Source of the DNA: Thermoplasmata archaeon
GTDB taxonomy: Archaea > Thermoplasmatota > Thermoplasmata > Lutacidiplasmatales > UBA184
Assembly: GCA_035502055.1 (NCBI GenBank)
Contig: DATJVB010000019.1
Span: 1 to 55,704, forward strand
Length of the DNA stretch: 55,704 bases
Direction: 5' to 3'
A program made the position numbers and the translations under genes. The notes under the pieces were generated by a model. The model had not been told where the DNA came from and ran no database searches. It worked only from the letters and a program-made list of their open reading frames with translations. Below are positions 1,212 through 32,982 of this stretch, one piece after another; positions within the stretch are counted from its first letter, which is position 1; each line of letters starts with the position of its first letter.

Positions 1212-3845
1212 CTAGTGCGGACGCATCGGTCCCGCGTCGGCGTCGTCGTCCGGCGTCTCGGAGTCGGTTTCCGACGCGGCCGTCGCCGACCGGGCCGCAC
1301 GCCGCCGCGCGTACACGGCGAGGCCGATCGCGATCCCCGCGGCGATCACGACGAACGCCCCGATCCACGGGAGCGTCGAGCCGGACACGAGCGACGGCGG
1401 CGGCGGGGTGGGGAGACCGCCGGTGCCCGCCGGCAGGACCGTCACGGCCGTCCAGGCGGTCACGGTGAGACCCGCGGCGTCGGTCGCGTTCACGCGCGCC
1501 TCGTACGACCCCGCGACGTCGTACACGTGGGAGACGGTGAGTCCGGTCGCCGTGCGCCCGTCGCCGAACGACCAGGCGACGGCGTACGGGCCGGTCCCGC
1601 CGTGGACGGTCGCGGTGATTGCCACGGTGCCGCCGAACGGAACCTCCAGCTTCGACACGTTCACCTGGACCGACGGGAGGACGTTCACCGTCACGTTCAC
1701 CCACGCCGTCGCGGAGACGCCGAGCTGGTCGAGCGCCGTGACGGAGACCGGGTACGCGCCGGCGAGCGCGTACGTATGGCTCGGCGCCGCGGCGCTGCTC
1801 GAGGAGCCGTCGCCGAACGTCCAGACGTAGTCGATCGTCCCGGACCCGTTCGTCGCGACGGACGTAAAGCCGATCGGGAGTCCGACGTCGGTCGACGTCA
1901 CGTTCGCGGCGCCGGTCACGCCGACCGGCGCGGCCACCGTCACCGACGTCGTACCGTTCGCGGAGATGCCGAGCGCGTCGACGACGGAGAGGGTGACGGG
2001 GTACGTCCCGGCCGCGGCGTACGCATGCTCGAAGGAGCTCGAACCGGCCATGGTGCCGTCGCCGAGGGACCATGCGAACGTGTACGGAGCGACGCCGCCC
2101 GAGACGCCCGGATCGAACGATTCGGTAAGACCGACCTCCGTCGACGCCGTCCCGAGCCGGATGGCGAGCGCGAGGTGCGGCGCGACGTCCTGACCGAGGT
2201 ACCCGATGATCTGGCCCCCGAGCGAGTCCGTCGCCGACACCGACACTGTGTACTCGCCCGGGGCGGCGTAGGTGTGGTTCACGGAGCGACCGGGGGTCGT
2301 CGTTCCGTCGTCGAACGCCCAGACGTACGCGTACGGCGGGGTCCCGCCCTGGGCCGTCGCCGTGAACGCGATCGGGACCGACACCTCCGACGCCTCGAGC
2401 GACGAGCTGGGCGATATGCCGCTCGGCCGCGGGTAGACCCGGATGTAGACGAGCGGGCTCATCGCCGAGAGGCCGGCGGCGTCGGTGACCGTCACCTGGG
2501 CGGAGTAGTTGCCGACGAGCCCGTACCGGTGGTTGGCGACCGCGCCCGAGCCGCTCGTGTTGTCGCCGAACGCCCAGCTGTACGAGTACGGGGGCGTCCC
2601 GTTGCCCGAGACCGTCGCCGTGAACTGGACCGGGGCGAGGAGCGCCACCTGGGTGCGGTTCGCGAGTCCGATCACGGAGGGGGTCACCCGCTCCCCGAGG
2701 ACCCACGTGTCGGAGGTCGCCCCCCCCGTCGCCGAGGAGTTGCCCCCGAAGACGACGAGCCCGTGCTCATCGGGATCGAACGTCGAGGCGGCGCCGGCCC
2801 GGGGCGTCGGGGCGGAGGAGAGGCTCAGGTTGCTCCACGTATCGTTCGCAAACCGCCAGGTGTCGTTGTAGAACGTCGCACCGGACCAGGTCGATCGCCC
2901 GCCGAACAGCGTGACCGCCCCGGAGAGCGGGTCGAACCCCGACGCGGGATAGTAGCGGGCGGGCGGGGACTCGGCCGGATGGAGGAGCGTCCACGCGCCG
3001 CTCGCGAACTCGTACGTGTCGAGGGAGCCGCCGACCCACGCCGCGAGGACGACCGTCGCGTCGGGAGCGTCGAAGGCGAGGCCGGCGCAGCAGAGACCGC
3101 TCGCGAGCCCCACGTTCACGCCGAGGTCGGTCCACGTCGCGTTCGCCAGCAGGTACGTCCCGCGCGCCGACGTGCCGTTGGCGTCGAGGCCGCCGACGAG
3201 GACGAGCGCGCTCGCGGCCGGGTCGTAGGCGACCGCCGCCGATGCGACCGCCGGGGGGCTTCCCGCGAGCGAGGCGCTGAGGTCCTCCCAGCTTCCGTCG
3301 GAGAAGAGCCACGTCGCCGTCGCCTCGACCGGTCCGGTCGGCGACGCCACCAGGCCGACCGCGAGCACGATCCCGCCGAGGTCGGGGTCGTACGCCATCG
3401 CGGGCCCGACGACCGCGGGCGGGCCGAACGCGGTCGTCACGTTCCGCCACGTCCCGTTCGCGAACTCCCAGGTATCGTTGAGCCAGCGCGACGCGCCGTC
3501 GCCCCACCCCCCGAACAGTACCGACAGGTTGTCCGCCGCGTCGAACTCGAGCGCCGCCCCGGTGCGGGGGCTCGGCGCGTCGCCCACGTGCGCGGAGATG
3601 TCGGTCCAGTACTCCGTCACCGTCTGCGGCGTCGCGGATGGGGCTCCCGCCGCGGTCCCCGGCACGACGGTCGTAAGGGGCGCGATCGAACGCGCGCCGT
3701 CGACAGCGGCGTCCCCGGCCGGCACGGAGGCCAGCCCCGGCGCGGCGGTAGGGAGGTGGGCGCCGACGCCGGGAACCAGGAACCCGAGCGCGAGCGCTAC
3801 GGCGATGGCGTTGGCGGGCCATCGCCCGGCAGATCCGACGGCCAA
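1212..3845 (-). CDS. Secreted, C-terminally anchored surface protein: six Kelch-like blades plus five PKD domains
   Basis: Trimmed from the 1,509-aa track ORF. The upstream part is antisense to the gltD-like gene. The first usable in-frame start before the signal peptide is TTG at 3843-3845, giving (M)AVGSAGRWPANAIAVALALGFLVPGVGA. Kelch signature DTWxFxxGxW occurs six times and WxFGDG PKD cores five times. The protein ends in a TM helix, RRR and an acidic tail. Confidence 0.85.
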   Translation of the reverse strand: MAVGSAGRWPANAIAVALALGFLVPGVGAHLPTAAPGLASVPAGDAAVDGARSIAPLTTVVPGTAAGAPSATPQTVTEYWTDISAHVGDAPSPRTGAALEFDAADNLSVLFGGWGDGASRWLNDTWEFANGTWRNVTTAFGPPAVVGPAMAYDPDLGGIVLAVGLVASPTGPVEATATWLFSDGSWEDLSASLAGSPPAVASAAVAYDPAASALVLVGGLDANGTSARGTYLLANATWTDLGVNVGLASGLCCAGLAFDAPDATVVLAAWVGGSLDTYEFASGAWTLLHPAESPPARYYPASGFDPLSGAVTLFGGRSTWSGATFYNDTWRFANDTWSNLSLSSAPTPRAGAASTFDPDEHGLVVFGGNSSATGGATSDTWVLGERVTPSVIGLANRTQVALLAPVQFTATVSGNGTPPYSYSWAFGDNTSGSGAVANHRYGLVGNYSAQVTVTDAAGLSAMSPLVYIRVYPRPSGISPSSSLEASEVSVPIAFTATAQGGTPPYAYVWAFDDGTTTPGRSVNHTYAAPGEYTVSVSATDSLGGQIIGYLGQDVAPHLALAIRLGTASTEVGLTESFDPGVSGGVAPYTFAWSLGDGTMAGSSSFEHAYAAAGTYPVTLSVVDALGISANGTTSVTVAAPVGVTGAANVTSTDVGLPIGFTSVATNGSGTIDYVWTFGDGSSSSAAAPSHTYALAGAYPVSVTALDQLGVSATAWVNVTVNVLPSVQVNVSKLEVPFGGTVAITATVHGGTGPYAVAWSFGDGRTATGLTVSHVYDVAGSYEARVNATDAAGLTVTAWTAVTVLPAGTGGLPTPPPPSLVSGSTLPWIGAFVVIAAGIAIGLAVYARRRAARSATAASETDSETPDDDADAGPMRPH
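1430..2687 (-). repeat. Five tandem PKD-type Ig domains (protein-level tandem repeat)
   Basis: Cores WAFGDNTSG, WAFDDGTTT, WSLGDGTMA, WTFGDGSSS and WSFGDGRTA are spaced about 84 aa apart. Boundaries are approximate. Confidence 0.75.
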
Positions 3846-3980
3846 GGGAGCTCTCCCCCGACGAGCGGCCCCGCTTACATGTAGTACGCGGGGCCTCCCC
3901 GGGGGTCCGCCCGCGACGACCCTATACCCGCGAGGGCGTATGGGGCCCCGTACCGGGGCCGCCGATCCCCGGCCGATCCG

Positions 3981-5417
3981 ATGGAGAACCAACGGTACGT
4001 CCGCACCGAGATCCCGGAGGAGACCCCGGAGGAACGGTCGAGCGGATTCGGCGAGATCCTGTACCCGTACACGCGCGAGCAGGCGGTGCTCGAGGCCCGT
4101 CGCTGCCTCCAGTGCGCGATGCCGTTCTGCGTCCAGGCGTGCCCGATCACCCAGGACTGCCGCGGCTACATCGACCTCATCGCGCAGGAGCGGTTCGACG
4201 ACGCCGCGCGGCTCACCCTCCGGGAGAACCCGCTCGCGACCGTCCTCTGCAAGACGTGCTACCACTACTGCGAGGAGGACTGCGTCATGGGCGGGCGGGG
4301 GGTCCCGATCGCGATCCGCCACCTCAAGCGCGCCGCGCTCGAGCTCGGCCGGTCCGACGTCGCGTACGCGCCGGGGGCCCCTCGGAACGAGCGGGTGGCG
4401 GTGATCGGCGGCGGACCGGCCGGCCTCATGGCGGCGTGGGAGCTCGCGCTGCGCGGCTACGGGGTGACGGTCTTCGAGGCGGAGCCGTTCCTCGGAGGGC
4501 AGATCGAGACGATCCCGAAGTACCATCTCGATGGGAGCGAGCTCTCGACGGACGTGGCCCGGTTCTCGAAGCTCGACGTCACCTTCCGGACGGGCCGAAA
4601 GGCCGGGACCGATTTCACGCCCGAAAGCCTCCTCGCCGAGGGGTACCTCGCCGTCTATGTGGCGGTCGGCGCGTCGGACCCCCGCCTCCTCGGCATCCCG
4701 GGCGAGGAGCTTCCGGGGGTCTACGCGGCCCTCCCGTTCCTCCTCGGGGTGAACCACGGGCCCGACGGGGGGTTGTTCGGCCGGAAGGGCCGGCGGATCG
4801 TGGTGATCGGCGGCGGCGACGTGGCGCTCGACGCCGCCCGGTCGAGCCTCCGGCTGTCGGCCCATGGGGACGTGACGGTGATCTACCGGAAGTCCCGGGA
4901 CCAGATGCCGGCCGGGCCGGAGGAGGTCGAGGGGGGATCGACCGAGGGGGTCAACTTCCTGTTCGAGCGGTCGCCGGTGCGGATCGTCGGGAAGGGCCAG
5001 GTCGAGGGGATCGTCGTCGCCCGGACCCAGAACGGGCCGCCCGACGCGCGCGGCCGGCCGACGGCCTCGCTCGTGCCGGGGTCGGAGGAGACGATCCCGT
5101 GCGACACGGTCATCGTCGCCGTCGGCGAGCGCGCCGATCTCTCGGAGTTCCCGCCCGAGCTCGGTTTCGTCATCGGGGGGTCCGGGGCCCCGCAGGGGCC
5201 GAGCCCCGACTGGATGACGAAGGTCGAGGGGGTGTTCGCCTCCGGCGGCAAGTCGGTCGTCTACGCGATGGCGGCCGGGACCCGGGCGGCGGAGGCGATC
5301 GAGGCGTACATCGCGAAGAAGAAGGGCCGGCCCCCGCGCGCGCGGCCCGACCCGTTCGGAGGTCCGGAGCCCCCGGGGCTCCCGCCGGGGTACGGCGGCC
5401 CCACCTGGCACTTCTGA
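3981..5417 (+). CDS. GltD/SudA/NfnB-family NAD(P)H-dependent FAD/Fe-S oxidoreductase (glutamate synthase small-chain-like)
   Basis: 478 aa. N-terminal Fe-S cysteines (CLQCAMPFCVQACP), two dinucleotide folds (VIGGGPAGL and VVIGGGDVALDAA) and a typical GltD C-terminus. Confidence 0.85.
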   Translation: MENQRYVRTEIPEETPEERSSGFGEILYPYTREQAVLEARRCLQCAMPFCVQACPITQDCRGYIDLIAQERFDDAARLTLRENPLATVLCKTCYHYCEEDCVMGGRGVPIAIRHLKRAALELGRSDVAYAPGAPRNERVAVIGGGPAGLMAAWELALRGYGVTVFEAEPFLGGQIETIPKYHLDGSELSTDVARFSKLDVTFRTGRKAGTDFTPESLLAEGYLAVYVAVGASDPRLLGIPGEELPGVYAALPFLLGVNHGPDGGLFGRKGRRIVVIGGGDVALDAARSSLRLSAHGDVTVIYRKSRDQMPAGPEEVEGGSTEGVNFLFERSPVRIVGKGQVEGIVVARTQNGPPDARGRPTASLVPGSEETIPCDTVIVAVGERADLSEFPPELGFVIGGSGAPQGPSPDWMTKVEGVFASGGKSVVYAMAAGTRAAEAIEAYIAKKKGRPPRARPDPFGGPEPPGLPPGYGGPTWHF

Positions 5418-5452
5418 CCCGCGTTGGCGGGTCGGATACCGTCTCGGCGCCC

Positions 5453-6004
5453 TTAGGCGCCGCCCGGTCCGAGCGGGGCCCCGCAGGTCTCGCACCGCGT
5501 CGCCGCGACGGGGCTGAGATGCCCGCAGTAGTCGCACTTCGGCATCTGCGACCGGTCGACCGCGGCGCCCCCTCCTCCGGGGCCGAACCCGGGAGGCGGC
5601 GGCGGGGCGTTCGCCCGGGCGGCGGTGATCGCCGTCGCGAACGCGGCCGCGTCCGGCGTCGCGAGGGCGATCCGCCGGGAGAGGAGTTCGATCTCGAGGA
5701 CCGGCCCGCGGGGTCCCTGCGTCGCCGCCGCGCTCCGGCACCGCCAGAGCGGGATGCGGAGCTCGCCGGGGAATCCGGGCCGACCGCCGCCGCCGCCGCG
5801 CGGCCCCCAGCCGGGGCGGCGACGGGGCGGTCCTCCGAACATCGGCCGGCCGGGGCGGGCCATCATCGGGCCGCCCCCGCCCTCCGCCTCGAAGACGATC
5901 GCCTGGTTCGTGACGGTGAGGCCGCCGGCCCGCTCCATCGGCGGTCCGACCCAGACCGCCGGCCCGCTTCGGAGGACCGCCTCGCCGGGAAGGAGGTTCG
6001 GCAT
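5453..6004 (-). CDS. PH/GRAM-like domain protein with Gly/Arg/Pro-rich insert and C-terminal zinc ribbon
   Basis: Trimmed to ATG at 6002-6004, the first start downstream of AT-rich island 6045-6054. 183 aa. C-terminal CDYCGHLSPVAATRCETCG. Confidence 0.55.
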   Translation of the reverse strand: MPNLLPGEAVLRSGPAVWVGPPMERAGGLTVTNQAIVFEAEGGGGPMMARPGRPMFGGPPRRRPGWGPRGGGGGRPGFPGELRIPLWRCRSAAATQGPRGPVLEIELLSRRIALATPDAAAFATAITAARANAPPPPPGFGPGGGGAAVDRSQMPKCDYCGHLSPVAATRCETCGAPLGPGGA

Positions 6005-6082: not shown

Positions 6083-6091
6083 CGATATAGG
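6083..6091 (+). promoter_or_regulatory. TATA-like island (CGATATAGG), leaderless geometry for the 6113 operon
   Basis: Centre lies 26 nt upstream of GTG 6113, in the divergent intergenic region shared with the 6004 gene. Confidence 0.4.
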
Positions 6092-6112
6092 TCGAGGCGC
6101 CTCCTCTCCGGC

Positions 6113-6328
6113 GTGACCCCGGCCGAGCGGGAGCTCCTCACGGGGATGGGCAACTGCTACGAGGCGTGCCACGCGACGTTCGAGGAGACCCTCGAGATGG
6201 TCGGCGGGAACCGGGGGCTGACGCCGGACGAGGTGCGCGCGCGGCTCGCGGCGATCCGCGCCCGATACGCGGACGAGCCCGAGTACCGGCGGCTGCGCGC
6301 CCGCCTCCCCGAGGAGTTCCCCTTCTAG
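6113..6328 (+). CDS. Small protein (71 aa) with CX3CH motif, hypothetical
   Basis: C-terminal real part of a 738-aa shadow ORF. GTG 6113 sits 26 nt after the TATA-like island; alternative ATG at 6146. Sequence ...GNCYEACHATFEETLEMVGG...EEFPF. Confidence 0.4.
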   Translation: MTPAERELLTGMGNCYEACHATFEETLEMVGGNRGLTPDEVRARLAAIRARYADEPEYRRLRARLPEEFPF

Positions 6329-6339
6329 GGGCGCGTCGC

Positions 6340-7242
6340 ATGACCCGGTGCGCCGTCTGTCGAATGGGGTTCGGCCCCGCGGACCTCGGGGCCGTGGCGG
6401 ACCACCTGCTGGCCGCGTCCGCCGCGAGCGACCCCGCGCACGTCCGGTGGCTCAACCAGTCGATCTCGCGCCGACGGATGGACCGCGCGGAACTTACCGC
6501 CGCACTCGGAGCCCTCTACGCGATTCCGCCGGACGGACTCGCCGCCTGGATCCGCGGCCGGTTCGTCGCCCGATTCTTCGGTGCGCGACCCCATCCGTTC
6601 GTCGTCGCGCTCCAGCACCCCACGCCGGCGACGCTCGCGGGGTACGCGGTGGAGCACCAGCACTTCCTGCGTCAGTGGGTCCGCTCGTGCGGGTACGTCC
6701 TCGCCCGCTCGGACCGGGACGACGTCGCGCGGTACGAGCTCGAGAACCTCACGACCGAGTTCTCGGGCGCCGGCGACGACCACCCGTCGCACTACGAGCT
6801 CCTCCTCCGGATGGGCGAGTCCGTGGGGGTCCCCCGCGACGTCCTGCGGGCGACCCCGCCGCTCCCGGCGACGGCGCGGGCGATCGCGGAGTGGGACGAC
6901 ATCGCCGCGCGGGAGCCGTGGGTCGCCGCCATGGCCGCGATGCACGCGCTCGAGCTCATCGCCCACCGCGATCTCGCCCCGTTCGGCGCGACGGTCCACT
7001 ACTTCGACCCCGCCATTCTCGACGACGAATCGATCCCGGCCGCCGCGCGCGCGTTCCTCCGCGAGGGGTACGAGGCGGACGTCGGCCACGCGGAGGAGGC
7101 GCTCGCCCTGGTGGAGCGGTACGCGACCGAATTGGGCCGGGTCGAGGACGTGCAGGCGGTCTTCCTCCGTTCGATGGACCTGTTCGACGACTACCTGGGA
7201 GCCCGGCTCGAGCGGGCGGAGCAGTATGGACCCGCCGGCTGA
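6340..7242 (+). CDS. Heme-oxygenase-like fold iron-containing redox enzyme (PqqC/CADD/TenA-like) with N-terminal Cys-pair extension
   Basis: ATG 6340, 300 aa. Helical core carries candidate metal ligands AVEHQH, ELENLTTE, HPSHYELLL, MHALELIAH and REGYEADVGHAEE. The N-terminus is MTRCAVCRMGF. Confidence 0.7.
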   Translation: MTRCAVCRMGFGPADLGAVADHLLAASAASDPAHVRWLNQSISRRRMDRAELTAALGALYAIPPDGLAAWIRGRFVARFFGARPHPFVVALQHPTPATLAGYAVEHQHFLRQWVRSCGYVLARSDRDDVARYELENLTTEFSGAGDDHPSHYELLLRMGESVGVPRDVLRATPPLPATARAIAEWDDIAAREPWVAAMAAMHALELIAHRDLAPFGATVHYFDPAILDDESIPAAARAFLREGYEADVGHAEEALALVERYATELGRVEDVQAVFLRSMDLFDDYLGARLERAEQYGPAG

Positions 7243-8611
7243 GGGGTGCCCGCTCTGCGGCTCCACGTGGGGCGACTGGTGGGAGGCGATCGACGGTGTC
7301 CCGACGTTCTTCTGCTGCCAGATCTGCGCCATCCAGTGGCGCACGATCCTCGGCGAGGTCCGCCACCGGGCGGGGTGGACCGGCCCGATGGCGGTCGAAC
7401 TGAAGGGGAACCGGTGGGGCCGCACCGGCGTCGCCACGCGCGGCGGGGACGCCGTCCGGTTCTCGGTCGTCTTCACGCCGGACGGGCGGCTCCGCCGGTT
7501 CGATCTCCTCGAACCGCTTCCGACGTCGGCCGCGCCCCCGGCGCCGGCGGCCCCTCCCGAGGCGCCTCCCCCGGCCGCGCCGCCCCCGCCGCCGGTCCCC
7601 CCGGGCCCCGAGACGATGCATCCGAAGCTCGTCGAGCGGCTCGAGTTCGAGGCCGAGACGTACCCGGACCTCACCACGGTCCCCGTCGAGGAGGGTCGGG
7701 AGTTCGTCCGGGAGATGGCCTCCGAGCTCGGCCGCATCGCCGGTCCCGTCCCGTCGGTCTCCCAGATCACCAACTCGAGCTACCGGTGCGGCGACCACCG
7801 GGTACCGGTCCGGATCTATACGCCCGTCGACGGCGATCCGCCGTTCCCGGTCGTCGTCCTCCTGCACGGCGGCGGGTTCGTGTTCGGCGACCTCGACACG
7901 CACGACGGGCTCTCCCGGGAGCTCGCGAACCGGTCCCGCGCGGTCGTGGTCACGGTCGGCTTCCGCCGCGCGCCCGAGTTCCCGTACCCGAACGCCGTCG
8001 AGGACGCCTTCGCGGCGTTCGCCTGGGTGGCGCTCCCGACGACGGCGGCCCGGCTGCAGCTCGACCCCGACCGCCTCGCGGTCGTCGGGGACGACACCGG
8101 TGCGGCGCTCGCGCTCGCGGCGGCGATGCTCGCCCGGGAGCGGGGGGGTCCCGCGCCCCGCGCCGCCGCGCTCGTCTGCCCCGTCCTTGCCCGGGCGCCC
8201 GACGTCCCGTCGTACCGCGAGTTCGCCGTGGGCGCCGGCCTCGAGGCGGCGTTCCTCGACTGGGCTTGGGCGCAGTACCTCCCGACCGCCGACGACGCGG
8301 CCGACCCGCACGCCGTCCCGTGGGCGGCGACCGACCTCGCCGGGCTGCCGCCGACCCTCCTCCTGACCGCCGGGTGCGACCCCGCGCGGGACGAGGGGGA
8401 AAAGTTCGGGGAGCGGCTTCGGGCCGCCGGCGTCGAGACGACGGTCCGACGGTACTCGGGCATGCTCCACGCCTTCCTCGACTACCGGGGGGTCGTCGAG
8501 GACGGATGGCGCGCGATGGAGGAGCTCGGGGAGTGGCTCCGCGCCGCCCTCGAGCCCGCGCGGACGGCGCCGCCGGCGGCGGCCGCGCCGCCTTCCGCCG
8601 CGACCGGCTGA
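7226..8611 (+). CDS. Fusion protein: Cys-rich Zn-binding domain, Pro-rich linker, alpha/beta-hydrolase fold-3 (HSL-type esterase) domain with GDDTG in place of GDSAG
   Basis: ATG 7226 overlaps the upstream stop by 17 nt. 461 aa. Motifs: CPLCGSTWGDWW...FFCCQIC, then PAPAAPPEAPPPAAPPPPPVPPGP, then HGGGF, GDDTGAALA, DPARDEG and MLHAF. Confidence 0.75.
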   Translation: MDPPAEGCPLCGSTWGDWWEAIDGVPTFFCCQICAIQWRTILGEVRHRAGWTGPMAVELKGNRWGRTGVATRGGDAVRFSVVFTPDGRLRRFDLLEPLPTSAAPPAPAAPPEAPPPAAPPPPPVPPGPETMHPKLVERLEFEAETYPDLTTVPVEEGREFVREMASELGRIAGPVPSVSQITNSSYRCGDHRVPVRIYTPVDGDPPFPVVVLLHGGGFVFGDLDTHDGLSRELANRSRAVVVTVGFRRAPEFPYPNAVEDAFAAFAWVALPTTAARLQLDPDRLAVVGDDTGAALALAAAMLARERGGPAPRAAALVCPVLARAPDVPSYREFAVGAGLEAAFLDWAWAQYLPTADDAADPHAVPWAATDLAGLPPTLLLTAGCDPARDEGEKFGERLRAAGVETTVRRYSGMLHAFLDYRGVVEDGWRAMEELGEWLRAALEPARTAPPAAAAPPSAATG

Positions 8612-8624
8612 CCCCCGCGCCGGC

Positions 8625-9461
8625 CTACCGCTCCGCGAGGACGTGGACGACCTCGCCGGGGAGCCGGATCCCGTCGGCCGTCGCGTGCGACGCGAGCGCG
8701 TCGCGCGCCTCCCGAAGGACGACGGCCCGGACCTCGGGATCCTCCTCCGCGAGCGAGTGCCCGAGCGGCGTCCCTTCGAGGAGAAGCTCAAGGTACTCCT
8801 CGGCGCTCCGGAACATCCAGGCGTGCTCGACGCGACGCTCGCGGGCGGTGCGGAACCCGGCCTCGGTGAGGAGCCGGACGAGCTCGCCCGGCCCCCCGAG
8901 CTCGTACGGCGTCGGGAGGTAGCCCCCCTCGTCCGGCTCCGCGTGACGGAGCATCGGCCCGACGACGACGTCGAGGAGGGGAACCCGATCCCCCGGACCC
9001 CAGACGGCGATCGCGCACCGGCCGCCGGGCCGGAGCACCCGGCGGGCCTCGCGGGCCGCCCCCTCGGGGTCGGTGAAGATCTGGAATCCGAAGCGGCACG
9101 CGATCCCGTCGAACCGCCCGTCCGCGAAGTCGAGGTGGCCGGAGTCCATCACCCGGAACTCCACGTTCTCGAGGGAGGCCGCCCGGCCGGCGGCGTCGGC
9201 GAGCCGGACCATCTCCTCGGAGAGGTCGATGCCGGTGACCCGGCCGGACGGGCCGATCGCGCGGGCGATCGTGAGGGCCGGTTCGCCCGGGCCGGTCCCC
9301 AGGTCGAGGATCGACTCCCCGGCCGCCGGCGCGAGGTCGGCGAGGAGGTCCGGGTTCACGCGATCGTAGAGCGCCGCGAGACCCAGGTACCGTGTCGCGG
9401 CCCCGTTCCACGTCGTGCGGGTGTACTCCCGGTAGCTGTCCTCGGTGTACCGCCAGGGCAT
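8625..9461 (-). CDS. Class I SAM-dependent methyltransferase
   Basis: 278 aa. Motif I ILDLGTGPGEPA, post-I GIDLSEEM, RVLRPGGRCAI. Confidence 0.85.
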   Translation of the reverse strand: MPWRYTEDSYREYTRTTWNGAATRYLGLAALYDRVNPDLLADLAPAAGESILDLGTGPGEPALTIARAIGPSGRVTGIDLSEEMVRLADAAGRAASLENVEFRVMDSGHLDFADGRFDGIACRFGFQIFTDPEGAAREARRVLRPGGRCAIAVWGPGDRVPLLDVVVGPMLRHAEPDEGGYLPTPYELGGPGELVRLLTEAGFRTARERRVEHAWMFRSAEEYLELLLEGTPLGHSLAEEDPEVRAVVLREARDALASHATADGIRLPGEVVHVLAER

Positions 9462-9516: not shown

Positions 9517-9741
9517 TCAGCTCGTGTGCGCGGTCCGGTTGTGGCGGGCGAGCGCGCTCACGTGCGGGAACCGGCGGCGGCAGACCGAGCAGGTGACCGG
9601 CGTGTGCCCCGACGGGGACGGCGGCGGCTCCGCCCCGTGGGCGTCGAGCCGGTGCTCGGCGAGCGCCTCCGCGTCCGGGAACTGCCGCCCGCACTCGGAG
9701 CAGAGGGCCCGCGCCTCGTCGTAGTCGACGTACGGGGCCAT
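9517..9741 (-). CDS. Two-finger classical C2H2 zinc-finger protein
   Basis: 74 aa. Both CSECGRQFPDAEALAEHRLDAH and CSVCRRRFPHVSALARHNRTAH fit C-x2-C-x3-F-x5-L-x2-H-x4-H. Confidence 0.7.
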   Translation of the reverse strand: MAPYVDYDEARALCSECGRQFPDAEALAEHRLDAHGAEPPPSPSGHTPVTCSVCRRRFPHVSALARHNRTAHTS

Positions 9742-11581: not shown

Positions 11582-12088
11582 TCACTCCTGAAGGGTCGCG
11601 AGGAGGCGGACCTGGACCGTCCGGTTGATGAGCGGGCCCCCCGAGAGCGCCGTGTTGCCGATCATGACGACGCGGCCGTCGGCCGTCACGACCCACGTAT
11701 TCCGCAGCGCGACCCGCGCCACGGTGCCCCGGATGCCGCTGAACTCGATCTCGTCCCCGACGTGGAGCATCCCGTCCCGGAGGAGGAGGATGCCCGAGAG
11801 GATGTTCGAGAACAGCGACTGGAGGGAGAGCGAGAGGAGGAGGCCGACGAGCCCCGTGATCGTCACGACGGTGAACACCGAGGCGATGCCGGTGAGGTAC
11901 ACGGAGGCGAGCGCGGCGACGCCGATCCACGATGCGCGGAGGACGTCGCGGATCTCGCGAAGGGTGTTCGGCCGGGCCCCCGCCCGGGTCGCGATCGAGC
12001 GGATGACCCGGCTCGCCCCCTCGCCGACGAGTGCGACGCCGACGATCGCCCCGCCGACTTCGGCGCCGAGGACGACCCAGTCCGTCAT
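11582..12088 (-). CDS. Small-conductance mechanosensitive channel (MscS family, short form)
   Basis: Start set at ATG 12086-12088 (MTDWVVLG), 168 aa. TM helices are followed by the MscS beta-domain pattern LLLRDGMLHVGDEIEFSGIRGTVARVALRNTWV. Confidence 0.75.
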   Translation of the reverse strand: MTDWVVLGAEVGGAIVGVALVGEGASRVIRSIATRAGARPNTLREIRDVLRASWIGVAALASVYLTGIASVFTVVTITGLVGLLLSLSLQSLFSNILSGILLLRDGMLHVGDEIEFSGIRGTVARVALRNTWVVTADGRVVMIGNTALSGGPLINRTVQVRLLATLQE

Positions 12089-12162
12089 CGCCGCCCGGCC
12101 GTGCGACGGGCGTCCCGGGCCTTGAACCAATCCCCCGACAGGAGGAGGGGGCCCGGGCTACG

Positions 12163-12894
12163 CTACAGCCCGGGCACCGAGAGGAGGTGCCCGATGAGGA
12201 ATCCCGCGAACCCGCCGGCGATCCCGATGACGGCGAGCTGGATCCCGTCCCGGAGCCACTGGCCGGCGGTCATCCGAGCCTCGTACCATCCGATCGCGAA
12301 CAGCGTGACCGCGCTCGCCACGACGGCGAGGATCGCCCCGAGGACGAGGTCGTTCCCCACGAACAGGAACGGGACGAGGGGGATCCCGTGGCCGAGGACG
12401 GTCGCCCCCCCGACGATGATCGCGCTCGTCCGGGCCGCGTCCTCCTCGACGGGGGCGAGCTTGAGCTCGAACGACATCATGAACTCGAGCATGGCCGTCG
12501 GATTGCGGCAGATCCGGTCGAGGAGGTCGTCCAGGTCCGCGCCCGTGTACCCCCAGCCGGCGAGGACCTCCCGGACCTCGGCCCTCTCGATGTCGGGCAC
12601 CTCGGCCATCTCGCGGATCTCCCGCCGTCGCTCGTTGAGGTAGAGCCTTCGCCGGGAAAGGGTCGACGTGTACGCGACCGCCCCCATGGCGATCGACTCC
12701 GCGCCCATCGCCGAGAGCGTCGCGACGAAGACGATCCGGATGTCCGACGTCGCCGCCACGAGGCCGAGCACGATTCCGAGGACGTTGATGATCCCGTCCT
12801 GGCCCCCGAGGATGAAGTCCGAGAGAAGCGTGGGATGCGGATGGGCCTCGTGCCAGACTGCCTGCTTGCCGAGGGGACGCGCGTCGGACGCCAT
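12163..12894 (-). CDS. VIT1/CCC1-family iron/manganese transporter
   Basis: Start at ATG 12892-12894, 243 aa. Motifs: SDFILGGQDGIINVLGIVLG, a central cytoplasmic helical segment and C-terminal TM helices. Confidence 0.85.
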   Translation of the reverse strand: MASDARPLGKQAVWHEAHPHPTLLSDFILGGQDGIINVLGIVLGLVAATSDIRIVFVATLSAMGAESIAMGAVAYTSTLSRRRLYLNERRREIREMAEVPDIERAEVREVLAGWGYTGADLDDLLDRICRNPTAMLEFMMSFELKLAPVEEDAARTSAIIVGGATVLGHGIPLVPFLFVGNDLVLGAILAVVASAVTLFAIGWYEARMTAGQWLRDGIQLAVIGIAGGFAGFLIGHLLSVPGL

Positions 12895-13063
12895 GGTCGA
12901 GCCGGCGGAGCGGTCCGGTCGGCCCCCCGCCGGGGACCGCGCTAGCGGCCGCAGCGGATAACGGTCCCGGCCCGCCCGGCCGGGGCCGGCCCCGCGGAAC
13001 CTCCGTGGCGCGGGAGGCATACCTACAAGGGGGGCGTCGGGGGTAACAACCCGGGGGTGGACG

Positions 13064-28231: not shown

Positions 28232-29059
28232 CTACTTGCGCCCGCGCCGGCGGCGGCGGCCGCCCACCAGGCTCACCCATATAAAGATGGCCAGGACGAA
28301 CGCCGCCGCCCCGGCGATGTACCACGGCGTGTCGTCCGGCGGCGCCGGCTGGACGTAGAACGTCTGCGTGTAGACCTGCTGGCCGCCCGGGAAGCCGACG
28401 AGGCCGTGCTCGCCGGCGACGTTGATCGAGAACGCGTGCCAGCCGGGCGAAAGGTCCGTCGCCACGTACCGGAACGAGAGCGGGTAGCTCTGGCCCGGGG
28501 TGAGCGACGGCACCGCGATCGAGCCGACCGGCGACCCGTCCAGCGTCACCGTGAGCGCGAAGGCGCTCACCGACGCGCCGCTCCCGACGAGCAGCGTCGT
28601 CGACAGGACGAACGGCTCCACGATCTCGACGAGCAGCGAGACGTTCGTCGTCGCGTTGACGCCGTTCAGCGTCGAGTTGATGGTCACCGTGAGCGTCACC
28701 GGCTCGGTGATGTTCCCCGCGGACAGGGTGAGGTTGATCGAGCCGTTCACGAGGACGCCGGTCGACGCGGGGCCGAAGGCGAGCCCCGTCGTGTTGACGG
28801 CGTAGAAGCTCGCGGAGTAGGTGTAGGTCCCGACGACCGTCCCGTTGAGCGCCTCGGCCGGCCCGCCGGTCGCGCTGATCTCGTACGACCGCGACTGGAG
28901 GGTGCCGATCGTCGTCGGTCCGGCGATGTTCGCGCTGAGCGGCGGGTACTGGCCCGCGCCCCGGGCCGGGGCCGCGAGCGCCGCGAGGCCGGCGGTAGCG
29001 GCGAGGAGGACGAGGCCGAGCGCGACGGCGGCGCCCGGCGCGGACCGGCGGCTCCTCAT
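28232..29059 (-). CDS. Sequon-rich secreted protein with C-terminal TM anchor, translationally coupled to aglB
   Basis: ATG 29057-29059 overlaps the aglB TGA as ATGA. 275 aa. Signal peptide MRSRRSAPGAAVALGLVLLAATAGLAALAAPARGA. Eight N-x-S/T sequons in about 100 aa. TM helix plus GGRRRRRGRK. Confidence 0.75.
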   Translation of the reverse strand: MRSRRSAPGAAVALGLVLLAATAGLAALAAPARGAGQYPPLSANIAGPTTIGTLQSRSYEISATGGPAEALNGTVVGTYTYSASFYAVNTTGLAFGPASTGVLVNGSINLTLSAGNITEPVTLTVTINSTLNGVNATTNVSLLVEIVEPFVLSTTLLVGSGASVSAFALTVTLDGSPVGSIAVPSLTPGQSYPLSFRYVATDLSPGWHAFSINVAGEHGLVGFPGGQQVYTQTFYVQPAPPDDTPWYIAGAAAFVLAIFIWVSLVGGRRRRRGRK

Positions 29060-32000
29060 CGGCGGCTCCACCGGCGGGTCCGCCACCACCGGTAGACGAC
29101 GAGCCCCACGAGGAGCGCGAACGTCGGCGAGAACGCGAGCACCGGCACGAGCCAGTCGGGGTACGGGCTCGGCGCGCCGACGGACGGTCCGGTGACGGTG
29201 AGGCCGGTGCCGTTCCCGAGCGAGACCGAGAGGACCGGGACGGGCAGTTTGAGCGTCGTCCGGGCCGAGAGGGTGCCGTTCGAGCCGACGAGGGCGAGGT
29301 CGACCTCCCCCGGCGCGACGGCGTACGGCGTCGTCGCGTTGAGCTTCACGGAGAACGTCGTGTTCGACTGGGGCGCGAGCGACGGCGGCGCGGTCACGGC
29401 GCCGGACCCCTGGTCGATCTCGGCCGTCCAGCCGTCGGCGGCGAGCGCGATCGGGTTCTCGACGGTGATCGTCTCGCGGACCGCGACGTTGCCGAGGTTC
29501 GCGATCCAGAACGAGACCGTCCCGCTCTTCGGCGCCACGCTCGTCCCGGACGCGGAGACCCCCGCCGACATCGAGACGTACGGCTCCGTCGCGATCGTCC
29601 AGACGGTCGCCGGCCCCGCGGCGGTGCCGTTCGCGTACTCGGCGAGGAGGCTCGCCGCCGGCGGCGCGGCGAGGGTGCCGGCCGGCACCCGCACCGTCGC
29701 GTCGACGGTCACGGAGTCGTTGCCGGGAAGCACGCCGAGGGAGGCGTTCGCCGGCGTGAGCGTGAAGTTCCAGGTCGAGGGGCTGCCGAGGAACGAGACC
29801 GCCGCCGGGGCGTTCCCGACGTTCCGGGCCACGAAGATGCCGTTCACCGTCTGCCCGCCGGGCACGACGAACGGGCCCGGGGTCACGAGGGTGAGGACCA
29901 CGCGGGGGGAGAGGTCGAAGGCGAGCCCGAGGTGCGTCGCCGCGTTCCCGGCGGCGAGCACGACGCTCGTCGACGCCGTGGCGTTCGCGCTGACGCCGTA
30001 CGGGCTCCCCGTCGACCGGGCCGAGACCGTGTAGATCCCGACGGGCAGCGCGAGCGCGAGGGGAGCGCCGAAGGCGGCCCCGGCGATCGTGAGGTTCGCC
30101 CCGGAGGCGCTCGCGACGGTGAGCGTCGGCGCCGAGACCGCCGCGCTCGACTGGGGCCGGGCGATCGTGACGGTGTCGGTCCACGTCGGCACGAGGGTGA
30201 GGGCGAGCGCCGTCGGGGCCGTCGCCGACACCGTGACCCGCGTGAGGTTGGCGAGGTTCGCGAACCCGGTGCCGCCCGTCGCGTACACCGCGTACGAGCC
30301 CGGCGCGAGGGAGGCGCTGAACGCCCCCGACGGGGCGGCGACGGAGACCGTGGCCGTCGACGGGTACGGCCCGACGAGCTCGATCGAGGCGGCGGCGGGA
30401 CCGGGGTACGCCCGGGCGACGACGGTGCCGTTGAGCGTCGCGGTGAGGGCCGTTCCCTCGAGGGTGACCTGGCAACCGGAGACGGGATACGCCGCGAAGC
30501 AGGTCGCGCCGGCGCTGGCGACGAACACCTCGTAGCGGGCCGTCGAGCCCACGCCGACGAGCTGCGTCGTGTTGACGAGCACCGTGTACGTGGCGTTCGC
30601 CGGCACCTCCGCCGTGAAGTTGCCGCCCACCGCGGCGGCGGCGACGGTGACGCCGGGGGGCCCGGCGAGCGTGACGCCGACGGTCCCGTTCGGCGGTCCT
30701 CCGGTCGAGAGGGCCAGCGAGCCGTTCAGCTCCGCAGCGGCCGACGTGACGGCGACCGCGGGCTGGATCGCGCCCGTCGCGTTGATCGTGACGGTGGAGA
30801 GCCCCGTGTACGTCGTCCCCGCGGACGACCCGTTGCCGGCGGCGACGCCCCGGGCGAAGGCCGTGTACGTCCCCGGCGGGGCGAAGAAGCCGGTCGTGAA
30901 GGTGTCCCCGCCGACGGTGAGATTCGCGGTGGCCGAGGAGAGCGAGAGGGCGACCGACGCGTTGAGGAGCCCCGTCGGCAGGACGAGCCCCCCGGCCGAG
31001 TCGACCTCGTGCCGGACCGTGAGGGTGAACGTCTCGCCCGCGGATCCGATGCCGATCGTCGCGTTGATCGGCGACGTCGGCCGAAGGAGGCCCGGGGCCA
31101 CGGGCGACGGGCCCCACGCCGTCACGGAGTACGTCCCGGGCGCGACGGAGAACGAGAACGTGGGACCGCCCGTCGCGTTCACCGTCGACGCCGTCGCGCT
31201 CTCGGCGGTGAAGTTGACGGTGACCTTCGACCCGCCGGGCAGCCCGAAGACGGTGAGGTTCACGGGGACCGGTGTGAGGCGGAGCGGGATCGTCGTCGCG
31301 GCCGTCAGGTCCGACGGGGTGAGCCCGCACGCGGCGTACGGCTCGAACCCCTCGGCCGCCACGGAGAGGCAGTACGAGGTGCCGGTCGGCACCGTCGCCG
31401 GGACCGTGAACGAGACGTTCCCGGCGCCGGTTGAGAGGGCGGCGACCGACCACCCCGTCGAGAGCCCGAGGCGGACTTCGGCGCGGGCGGCCGGGAAGAA
31501 CCCCGGCCCGTTGGTGTACGTCGGCGTGCCGACCTCCGCCGAGACCACCACCGACGGGCCGACCGGGAGATCGACGGTCGTCGGATAGACGAGGGTCACG
31601 TTCTTCGCCGCGGAGAGGACCGGCGCCGTCGCGTCCGTCGTGCTCGTCGGTTGGATCGCGAGGAGGCTGTACGTGCCCTGGGGCAGGTAGAGCGCCCAGT
31701 CGCCGGAGGCGTTCGCCACCGCGATCACGGACGCCCCGCGCGTGTCGTAGGCGGTGACCTTGGTCGGCGTCGTCGCCGAGGAGCTGCCGGCGGTCCCGTT
31801 CAGGCGGACGGCGGGGGCGAGGGAGAGGGGCGCGAGCTCGAGCGCGCCGACGCCGCTCGGGAGGTACGCCGACGAGAACCCGGCCTCGAGCGTCGTCCCG
31901 ACGAGCCCGAGCGCGTACAGGGAGTAGTTGCCCGTCGGGACCGTCGCCGAGACGAACCCGAAGGCGTTCGACGTGAAGACCGTCGAGTTCTGGGGGGAGA

Positions 32001-32982
32001 GCGGCGGGGCGGCGCCGATCGGCGCCGTCGACCCGTTGCCGGTCCCGGAGGAGCCGTTCCCCGCCGCGGCCGAGGCGATCGGGGTGAACCGGACGGGGAT
32101 CCCGGCGACCGGCTCGTCGTTCGCGAGGACCGCGACCTCGACCGTCGTCACCGGGACCGCGGTGAGGTTGACGACGGTCCGGGTGCCGGCGGTGGTGATC
32201 GAGAATGGGACCGCGACGGTCCCCCAGCCCATCGACGCCTCGGCGGCCCGGACGGAGTAGTTCCCCGGTCCAAGGTTCGGGATCGCGTACTCCCCGCTCT
32301 CGTTCGTGACCGCGGTGCCGACGACGCCGGTCGGCCCGCTCACGGTCACCGTGGCCCCCTGCGCGCCGAACCCGCCCTGCGGGATGAACACCTTCCCCGA
32401 GAGCGACGCGGGCGTGAGACCCGTCGTCGCGTTCTGCGTCGCCCCGGTGGAGAGCGTGAGCATCGGCTCGGTGAAGTTGGCGCCCTGGTAGCGCACCGAC
32501 ATGTTGTACACGCCGGGGGCGAGGCCGGTGACCGAGAACGCGCCGCTCGCGTCGGTCGGGACGGTGCGGGCGCCGCCGGGGCCCCCCCACAGGACGACCG
32601 ACGCGCCCGGGACGACCGAGTCGGTCCCCGCGATGTACGACGAGTTGTTCGCGTTGTTCCAGTAGAGGAAGCCGCTCACGGTCGCCGGCGCGAGGACGAT
32701 CGGCCGGACCAGGGCCGGGCTCTCCGGGTTGAGGCCCTGCGACGCCGCGATCGGGAGGTGGAGCGACACGAGCGTCGTCCCGCCCGACTCCGTGAGCGGG
32801 TTGAACGAGCCGGTGGTGACGTTGACCGTGTCGTTCCCGGGCGGGAGGACGACGGAGTACACCCCGTGGGCGTCGGTCTGGGCGATCATGTGGGGGATCC
32901 CCCAGCCGTCGTACACGGTCACGAGGGCGCCCGCGACGGGCGCCCCGCCGGGGAGCGTCACCGTCCCCGTCATCGTCTGGCC
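29056..32982 (-). repeat. Array of carboxypeptidase-regulatory/Ig-like beta-sandwich modules forming the AglB C-terminal extension
   Basis: Recurrent pattern GTVxxxxGxPVAGAxVTV...TDAxGxYSxxLxPGxY. About 40 N-x-S/T sequons by hand count. Boundaries are approximate. Confidence 0.6.

Follow-up and report, generated by a model that had tools for sequence, protein, structure and literature searches.

The closest described relatives of the system analysed here are two archaeal protein families with solved structures. Ta0938 and Ta0939 (the latter designated 'PQQC') were listed in 2007, apparently in a table of the 30 proteins restricted to Thermoplasmatales and Sulfolobales (PMC1852104). Ta0938 corresponds to Protein Data Bank (PDB) entry 2FQH and to Pfam family PF11494, and SSO2700 of S. 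solfataricus, a protein of the Ta0939 type, to the structural-genomics entry 4LQX. Apart from the signature-protein list of 2007, no published function for Ta0938, Ta0939, SSO2700 or 4LQX was found in the literature searched. Here we describe a three-gene locus (genes A, B and C, positions 6113-8611) in a stretch of 55,704 nucleotides (nt) from a Thermoplasmata archaeon (contig DATJVB010000019.1 of assembly GCA_035502055.1), which is referred to below as the window. Proteins B and C belong to these two families. A preliminary description of the locus, made from the DNA letters, held that it could not be matched to any described system. This still applies to its function in the literature searched, but the families were already catalogued, the structures 4LQX and 2FQH were solved and the 2007 list existed.

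Conservation of the B-Ta0938 gene pair

From genomes and assemblies 75 loci were gathered, some of which are redundant copies of one genome, and these loci were searched with profiles of A, B and Ta0938. The Ta0938 gene is located directly after B in all 72 loci having downstream DNA, and A is located directly before B in 61 of the 69 loci having upstream DNA. Within the 4-5 kb fetched, A was absent in S. acidocaldarius, S. solfataricus, M. sedula, Caldivirga, Caldisphaera and the Thermoplasmatales-like loci L055-L058 and L067, and it was present beside B in a metagenome-assembled genome (MAG) of Thaumarchaeota (L072). The pair of B and Ta0938 exists in S. solfataricus, S. acidocaldarius, M. 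sedula, Caldivirga, Caldisphaera and one Thaumarchaeota MAG. Since Ta0938 follows B without exception while A and the hydrolase part of gene C are variable, the conserved unit consists of B and Ta0938, with A as a frequent third member. Indeed, a Ta0938 gene follows the SSO2700/Ta0939 gene in every genome checked, and this pairing agrees with the joint listing of Ta0938 and Ta0939 in 2007 (PMC1852104).

Homologues of B are numerous in Thermoplasmata MAGs (hundreds in the searches), where they have a length of approximately 300 amino acids (aa) and the same three Pfam domains. A search seeded with 4LQX additionally revealed homologues in Saccharolobus, Sulfolobus, Acidianus, Metallosphaera, Sulfodiicoccus, Caldivirga, Caldisphaera, Conexivisphaerales and MAGs labelled 'Thaumarchaeota'. 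The B-Ta0938 core represents an ancient module of two genes, which acidophilic archaea of several phyla have in common. The sampled distribution is centred on such organisms (Sulfolobales, Thermoplasmatales, Caldivirga, Caldisphaera and MAGs); the isolate names of the MAGs suggest peat or soil, which we take to be acidophilic habitats. This distribution is an unexplained clue to the product of the module.

A low-GC contig labelled Candidatus Heimdallarchaeota (L053, JACZSS010000041.1) carries the full trio of A, B and Ta0938, its B protein showing 51% identity. Either the module extends beyond Thermoplasmata, Thermoproteota and Thaumarchaeota, or this contig was mis-binned.

The preliminary description had proposed a functional trio of an oxidase, a hydrolase and a small protein, together with an analysis of the gene neighbourhood. 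Synteny was indeed found in dozens of genomes, but its constant core is B plus Ta0938: the hydrolase occurs in few loci of a restricted clade and A is missing beside B in thermoacidophiles. The proposed trio was therefore abandoned as a functional unit. All-against-all clustering of the open reading frames (ORFs) from 73 loci revealed no conserved neighbour beyond A, B and Ta0938; other ORF clusters that recur near the module were rejected as antisense artefacts of high-GC DNA.

Domains, fold and candidate metal site of B

Protein B consists of a zf-C2H2_9 zinc finger followed by a heme-oxygenase-like domain with the fold found in heme-oxygenase-like dimetal enzymes (HDOs), CADD and PqqC, and it is an orthologue of Ta0939 and SSO2700. 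It scored above the Pfam gathering thresholds for zf-C2H2_9 (PF16293; 56.8 bits versus 29, E 2.1e-15), TENA_THI-4 (102 versus 22, E 4e-29) and Haem_oxygenas_2 (PF14518; 61.8 versus 28.9, E 9e-17). The best PDB match of the B profile was 4LQX (E 1.8e-114), followed at a great distance by the 4-aminobenzoate synthases 9pj4 (E 1.9e-5) and CtCADD (entries 1rcw and 8va9, E about 3e-4) and by PqqC (E 4e-3). Architecture, length and invariant residues are the same in B and SSO2700/Ta0939, and at 48% identity B is a member of this family without a difference in kind.

An AlphaFold model of B, based on an alignment of 87 sequences, reached a mean predicted local distance difference test (pLDDT) value of 96.8 and could be superimposed on 4LQX with a template modelling (TM) score of 0.93. 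Further neighbours in a Foldseek search were PqqC (TM 0.60 by query and 0.70 by target), CtCADD (0.59 and 0.80, respectively), TenA, BesC, HrmI and UndA; the matches to PqqC, CtCADD, BesC, HrmI and UndA had a probability of 1.00 and target-normalised TM scores of 0.5-0.8. According to these structural matches, B is built of a seven-helix heme-oxygenase-like bundle with a zinc-finger subdomain in front of it. The fold predicted in the preliminary description was thus correct, and by alignment the iron-type ligands are kept. The same description had noted an extra N-terminal region of roughly 95 aa. This region is present but is more than an extension, because it contains a recognised Pfam zinc-finger domain, which in the model forms a beta-hairpin and then helices, and whose residues C4, C7, H22 and H34 are invariant in the 87 diverse sequences.

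HDOs are defined by a set of three His and three carboxylate ligands on core helices 1-3, and variants with fewer ligands are recognised (PMC13108848). In the alignment of B with CtCADD, five of the six ligand positions are retained (E140, H151, E205, D247 and H250 of B), while the sixth, the first His of the third core helix, corresponds to G243 (Table 1). All five candidate ligands and also the Gly are invariant in the 87 sequences, which are 42-70% identical to the protein of the window. The seven-helix fold and the series E, H, E, D, H are shared with CtCADD/NePabS and with UndA, BesC, SznF and HrmI. In contrast to CtCADD/NePabS and other HDOs, to which its identity is only about 20%, B has the invariant Gly, and the extra zinc finger and the constant partner gene distinguish it from CADD-type enzymes. 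In addition, the family is archaeal, whereas the HDO landscape is described as bacterial in a review (PMC13108848).

Other residues of B without any variation in the alignment are E105, H106, E133, H202 and E242, as well as W113, N136, W185, W194, Y221, Y244, R289 and R292. The position of H202 is occupied by His also in the synthase 9pj4, and H202 or H106 might substitute for the sixth ligand. Judged by these alignments, B is an HDO-like protein with a non-canonical, predicted set of five or more ligands.

With PqqC, B shares the fold and, close to where the domain begins, an HP[FY] motif. However, only the N-terminal half of B could be aligned to PqqC, and B is not assigned to this family. 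PqqC works without a cofactor, and its residues R50 and H84, which we take to be active-site residues, align to H106 and E140 of B. Thus, residues of the metal-binding type are kept in B instead of those for cofactor-less PqqC chemistry, and B also lacks the context of a pqq operon.

The Ta0938 domain and the fused hydrolase of gene C

The N-terminal 95 aa of protein C match Ta0938 at an E-value of approximately 1e-22 with all five Cys residues kept. The score against PF11494 was 79.4 bits (gathering threshold 27) and the profile of the family matched 2FQH at E 3.8e-22, in line with the earlier suggestion that this Cys-rich domain resembles Ta0938. The domain starts with a CxxC...CCxxC cluster, which is followed by a helix and a four-stranded sheet. 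Invariant in the family are G7, C8, C11, W15, G16, G24, F28, F29, C30, C31, C34, G61 and R66. A structural model (pLDDT 89.9) comprises a Cys-rich loop/hairpin region, a single long helix and an antiparallel sheet of four strands.

TRASH and YHS domains have been linked to the trafficking and sensing of metals, and the YHS domain occurs in some diiron phenol hydroxylases. We found weak similarity of the Ta0938 family to these domains: 62 of 63 aligned members matched TRASH_HVO_1752_C (best E 9.9e-5, treated as sub-threshold), 19 of the 63 matched YHS (best E 0.01) and seven matched Arc_trans_TRASH, while the copy in the window gave no TRASH or YHS match in this Pfam scan. The Cys pattern C11-x18-C30-x3-C34 with FFCCxxC of Ta0938 fits the TRASH/YHS motif. 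Curated thresholds are not reached, and Ta0938 differs from TRASH/YHS domains in an extra CxxC and in the appended half with helix and sheet. Thus the half with the Cys cluster looks TRASH/YHS-like, which we treat as a lead and not as a family membership.

Normally, Ta0938 proteins are free-standing and have approximately 100 aa. In the window the domain is fused via a Pro-rich linker to an alpha/beta hydrolase, and such fusions were found only in a small clade comprising the window, L005-L009 and L076-L079, the latter from metagenomes. Among the fused relatives, L005, L007 and L009 share the start MDPPxEGC of protein C. The linker is variable in sequence among the fused relatives, and its length ranges from short, as in the window, to much longer. 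This fusion is a late, variable and clade-restricted addition to the module.

The C-terminal 320 aa align to esterases of the HSL family at about 40-45% identity; for Est2, Est8 and LipP1 such values extend over approximately 290 aa. The HGGGF motif, the catalytic Asp (in DPARDEG) and the catalytic His (in LHAF) align to those of 4YPV (Est8) and 4V2I, so that the oxyanion, Asp and His elements of the HSL family are in place. In contrast, the nucleophilic Ser of the GxSxG elbow is missing: the window has GDDTG, where the solved esterases have GDSAG or GDSVG. The score against the NCBIfam model LipP1 was 289 bits, below the cut-off of 350. All in all, the fusion of a Cys-rich domain, a proline linker and an HSL-type hydrolase was identified correctly at the outset, except that the unusual elbow had escaped attention, and the HMM searches suggested then found Haem_oxygenas_2 in B and Ta0938 and Abhydrolase_3 in C, all above gathering scores.

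An Asp at the nucleophile position is present also in L005/L006 and in L079, and Ser is kept in six fused relatives (L007-L009 and L076-L078). Since the equivalent of D290 exists in independent assemblies, a sequencing error can be dismissed. The replacement makes an ordinary carboxylesterase or standard serine esterase unlikely. Dehalogenases and epoxide hydrolases are examples of other alpha/beta hydrolases with an Asp nucleophile, and therefore an altered hydrolase activity is as possible as a loss of activity.

Gene A encodes a small CX3C protein

In an alignment of 58 distinct homologues of the 71-aa protein A, two motifs are conserved, GMGNC[YF]xAC, which contains a CX3C, and LRxRxPxxFP at the C-terminus. 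The conserved positions are L8-L9, G-M-G-N-C15-x3-C19, F23, T26, M29, R34, L45, Y58, L61-R62 and P66-x-x-F-P70. The initial reading of a CX3CH motif had to be corrected to CX3C, because the position of the His is occupied by H, G, R, Q or E in the relatives. Differences among 53 distinct homologues amount to 0.27, 0.25 and 0.55 at the first, second and third codon position, respectively. This roughly two-fold excess at the third position indicates selection on A at the protein level.

A full HMMER scan of protein clusters yielded only 35 relatives of A among 1.84 billion representative proteins. Profile searches against Pfam, NCBIfam and PDB and a Pfam scan member by member revealed no consistent family for A, only scattered chance matches.

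Promoter and operon structure

The G+C content of the window is about 74%. In such DNA long stop-free ORFs are frequent on either strand, and thus the length of an ORF is no proof of coding. The G+C content at third codon positions is 0.99 in A, 0.92 in B and 0.95 in C, compared to 0.50-0.58 at second positions, a composition that is typical of genes in such a genome.

In the window, the sequence GATATA precedes the GTG start codon of A at a distance suitable for an archaeal TATA box (Table 1). We compared the 80 nt upstream of A in 58 distinct homologous loci and found A or T in 81, 95, 100 and 95% of the cases at positions -28 to -25, against a background of approximately 25-30% over the remaining positions; weaker A/T positions are -33 to -31 and -11/-10. 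Such a conserved TATA signal exists at A only. Its position suggests an archaeal promoter placed for a leaderless or nearly leaderless mRNA starting at A. Of 61 aligned loci, 56 have GTG as the start of A and the other five have ATG.

At -11/-10 (6102-6103 in the window), 76-79% of the bases in the 58 loci are A or T, often inside gATTc, whereas the window itself has C and T. This pair may be a promoter-proximal or an initiator element.

Gene B starts 11 nt after A in the window, and the spacer ranges from 5 to 34 nt across the loci. The start of C lies within the last 17 nt of B; across the loci, the Ta0938 gene begins inside B and the two have 4-20 nt in common, with the start codons as called here. 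Downstream of C follows a convergent gene (8625-9461, minus strand). A TATA box about 26 nt before the first start codon, in combination with short or overlapping junctions, corresponds to what is expected for a leaderless archaeal operon, and by its sequence the region 6113-8611 is a predicted leaderless, translationally coupled three-gene operon of a high-GC Thermoplasmata archaeon. In this respect the preliminary description holds: the start codon about 26 nt downstream of a TATA-like island, the succession of the 71-, 300- and 461-aa ORFs with gap and overlap, and the operon itself were confirmed, the latter by one conserved promoter, coupled genes and synteny over dozens of genomes.

Table 1. 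Features of the A-B-C locus in window coordinates, and positions of protein B aligned to the metal ligands of CtCADD
Feature	Position	Strand	Remarks
Archaeal TATA box GATATA	6084..6089	+	centre about 26 nt 5' of the GTG of gene A
Gene A	6113..6328	+	GTG start, 71 aa, orphan protein
Gene B	6340..7242	+	ATG start, 300 aa, zf-C2H2_9 and heme-oxygenase-like domain
Zinc-finger domain of B, aa 1-60	6340..6519	+	PF16293; C4, C7, H22, H34
Heme-oxygenase-like helical domain of B, aa 83-289	6586..7206	+	Pfam and alignment to CtCADD (1rcw)
Gene C	7226..8611	+	ATG start, 461 aa, Ta0938 domain, Pro/Ala linker and HSL-type alpha/beta hydrolase
Ta0938 domain of C, aa 6-93	7241..7504	+	PF11494, E 2.7e-22
Pro/Ala-rich linker of C, aa 96-133	7511..7624	+	read from sequence
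HSL-family (Abhydrolase_3) domain of C	7646..8551	+	PF07859, E 6.5e-61, 206 bits (gathering 25)
Nucleophile elbow G288-D-D290-T-G292 of C	8087..8101	+	D290 codon GAC at 8093-8095; aligns to GDSAG/GDSVG of solved esterases
CtCADD ligand E81	B E140		HMMER alignment
CtCADD ligand H88	B H151		HMMER alignment
CtCADD ligand E142	B E205		HMMER alignment
CtCADD ligand H174	B G243		HMMER alignment
CtCADD ligand D178	B D247		HMMER alignment
CtCADD ligand H181	B H250		HMMER alignment

Proposed function of the module and alternative explanations

We suggest that B is an O2-activating non-heme metal enzyme that works in an obligate complex with the metal-binding Ta0938 protein on a substrate yet to be assigned, with A as an accessory protein and the hydrolase as a tethered one. 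We give this reading a probability of roughly 55%. According to it, B would bind one or two metal ions, probably in a dinuclear Fe or Fe/Mn site, and would activate O2 in the manner of an HDO-type oxidase or oxygenase. In the predicted obligate complex, the TRASH/YHS-like Cys cluster of Ta0938 would bind metal and Ta0938 would serve the labile cofactor of B in that it delivers or stabilises the metal or possibly transfers electrons. Indeed, lability of the cofactor is known for HDOs, and one of them, MboA, depends on a partner protein (PMC13108848). The beta-sheet half of Ta0938 may hold or present the substrate. Protein A would be an accessory subunit of the complex and a lineage-specific addition, and the hydrolase on its proline linker, a still later addition, may act on or hold the same substrate as B. 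The analysis shows the structure of the genes, the promoter, the synteny, the folds and the conservation of residues; metal binding, O2 chemistry, complex formation and the roles of the partners are what we infer.

Several points weigh against this proposal. Caldivirga and Caldisphaera are largely anaerobic, and this fits poorly with an O2-dependent enzyme. The canonical set of HDO ligands is incomplete in B, where the alignment supports five of six and the last position is an invariant Gly, so that a mononuclear or a non-catalytic site is possible. The model of Ta0938 as a whole has no significant Foldseek neighbour, a resemblance to NTF2/cystatin-like curved sheets appearing only at E >0.1, and its similarity to TRASH/YHS is below the Pfam thresholds. 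Furthermore, the HDOs studied so far need no protein effectors according to the review (PMC13108848).

Since the solved proteins nearest to B after 4LQX are 4-aminobenzoate (pABA) synthases and most of the CADD ligand positions are kept, B could itself be a self-sacrificial pABA synthase of the CADD/NePabS type, which makes the arylamine for folate-like cofactors in archaea without PabABC and is assembled or reloaded by Ta0938 and A. A protein-derived substrate would require no conserved substrate-supplying neighbour, and no such neighbour was found; moreover, CT610 alone replaces PabABC in E. coli (PMC4161248). Nevertheless, B reaches only 26.6 bits against TIGR04305, the cut-off of which is 200, the amine donor Lys152 of CADD aligns to a variable position (Tyr27 of CADD falls beyond the aligned part), the ligand His174 is replaced by Gly, and CADD manages without a zinc finger and without a partner like Ta0938. 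We therefore regard a pABA synthase as unlikely. Non-catalytic handling or sensing of metals is also conceivable, in which Ta0938, the zinc finger and the bundle with its carboxylates and His residues would serve for the buffering, trafficking or sensing of Fe, Mn, Zn or Cu in acidic habitats that are rich in metals. This would suit the TRASH/YHS-like signal in nearly all Ta0938 members, the Cys/His motifs in all three proteins, the acidophile-centred distribution and a VIT1 iron/manganese transporter gene located 3.5 kb away in the window and also found in L005. However, many of the other invariant residues of B exceed the needs of metal binding and look enzyme-like, the module contains neither a DNA-binding nor a transporter domain, and the VIT1 gene represents local synteny only, which makes a purely metal-handling role rather improbable.

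The order of a small ORF, a PqqC-like gene and a gene for a protein of about 100 aa mimics pqqA-pqqC-pqqD, homologues of B are labelled pyrroloquinoline-quinone (PQQ) synthase by the Joint Genome Institute, and PqqC is the second-best structural neighbour of B. This would argue for a PQQ-like pathway to a peptide-derived cofactor, with A as the precursor, B as the PqqC-like final oxidase and Ta0938 as the PqqD-like chaperone. Such a pathway is very unlikely, since genomes of Sulfolobales, Caldivirga and Caldisphaera and Thermoplasmatales-like ones have no A beside B, R50 and H84 of PqqC are exchanged in B, no radical-SAM PqqE-like gene was present in the clusters of neighbouring ORFs or in those annotated loci that were inspected, nor a pqqD-like gene nearby, and the fold search with Ta0938 revealed no resemblance to PqqD. 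Least credible of all is that B is a thiaminase II of the TenA type or a 'TenA family transcriptional regulator', as many homologues are named at NCBI. It is true that TENA_THI-4 is the best Pfam match of B and that TenA structures are distant fold neighbours, but PqqC and CADD rank above them. The TenA enzyme has a catalytic Cys, whereas in the 87 B sequences no Cys apart from C4 and C7 of the zinc finger is invariant or nearly so, and no thiamine genes are adjacent.

Finally, B and Ta0938 could represent an undescribed two-protein oxygenase, in which the site with the Gly is completed in trans by the partner, or in which the partner protein is itself the substrate. This would be a protein-derived or sacrificial route to an acidophile-specific metabolite, candidates being the arylamine of modified folates or a precursor of sulfur-containing quinones, while A and the Asp-nucleophile hydrolase would be lineage-specific helpers. 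We put this forward as a speculation with rather long odds.

Neighbouring genes and other features of the window

Upstream of the operon, a divergent gene (5453-6004, minus strand) encodes a Gly/Pro-rich protein of 183 aa with a C-terminal CxxC...CxxC motif resembling a zinc ribbon and without a Pfam match. It shares a promoter region of 108 nt with gene A, and its position is kept only in L005/L006. Further upstream, an ORF of 1509 aa (1212-5741, minus strand) is largely a stop-free antisense artefact of the DNA with 74% G+C and overlaps a real GltD-like gene (3981-5417, plus strand; Fer4_20 and Pyr_redox_2). By analogy to the counterpart in L005, which bears Kelch and PKD repeats, only the downstream part of this ORF has the look of a real gene.

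The convergent gene downstream of C encodes a UbiE/COQ5-type methyltransferase. We rejected it as a part of the module: a convergent methyltransferase gene is located next to the module only in the window and in Caldisphaera lagunensis (L074, 5307-5858, minus strand), and as the copies are restricted to two loci and are 27% identical, their location is probably a coincidence. At 9517-9741 (minus strand) the window encodes a protein of 74 aa that consists of a pair of classical C2H2 zinc fingers (Pfam zf-C2H2, E 2.6e-9), a feature unusual for archaea. Within the flanks fetched, its homologues are located approximately 2-5 kb from the module in L005 (64% identity), L019 and L021. An MscS-type channel and the VIT1-family transporter are encoded at 11582-13020 (minus strand), about 3-4.5 kb downstream of the module.

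In Caldivirga (L071; 1-4847 and 6401-7288), B and Ta0938 are flanked by genes of sulfur relay and redox function, namely those for TusA, two rhodaneses, a DsbH-type thioredoxin and OsmC, an arrangement seen in this one genome. The window further contains an ORF of 2220 aa (29056-35718, minus strand) with a gene-like codon composition (G+C content of 0.97 at third positions). Scans with Rfam and for tRNAs found no RNA genes in the whole window.

Significance

The protein families to which B and Ta0938 belong were catalogued before and the structures of relatives are solved, and the proteins of the window are new members of them. Not described in the literature searched are the strict coupling of B and Ta0938 as a two-component system, the third small protein A with its promoter for a predicted leaderless transcript, the Gly that is invariant at one of the ligand positions of B, and the fusion of Ta0938 to a hydrolase with Asp at the position of the nucleophile.

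These observations are of importance for several reasons. Heme-oxygenase-like dimetal enzymes supply unusual oxidative chemistry in rapidly increasing variety, only about a dozen of them are characterised, and the archaeal B clade stands out by its conservation across phyla, its constant Cys-rich partner, its zinc finger and its non-canonical ligands. For relatives of both B and the Ta0938 domain solved structures are at hand, yet no assigned function was found in the literature searched. The map of the operon, with a core pair, an optional small subunit and an optional hydrolase, guides the choice of proteins to be co-expressed, and the B-Ta0938 pair is present also in the genetically tractable Sulfolobus. 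Last but not least, if the product is pABA or a quinone precursor, the module might fill a gap in the biosynthesis of cofactors in archaea.

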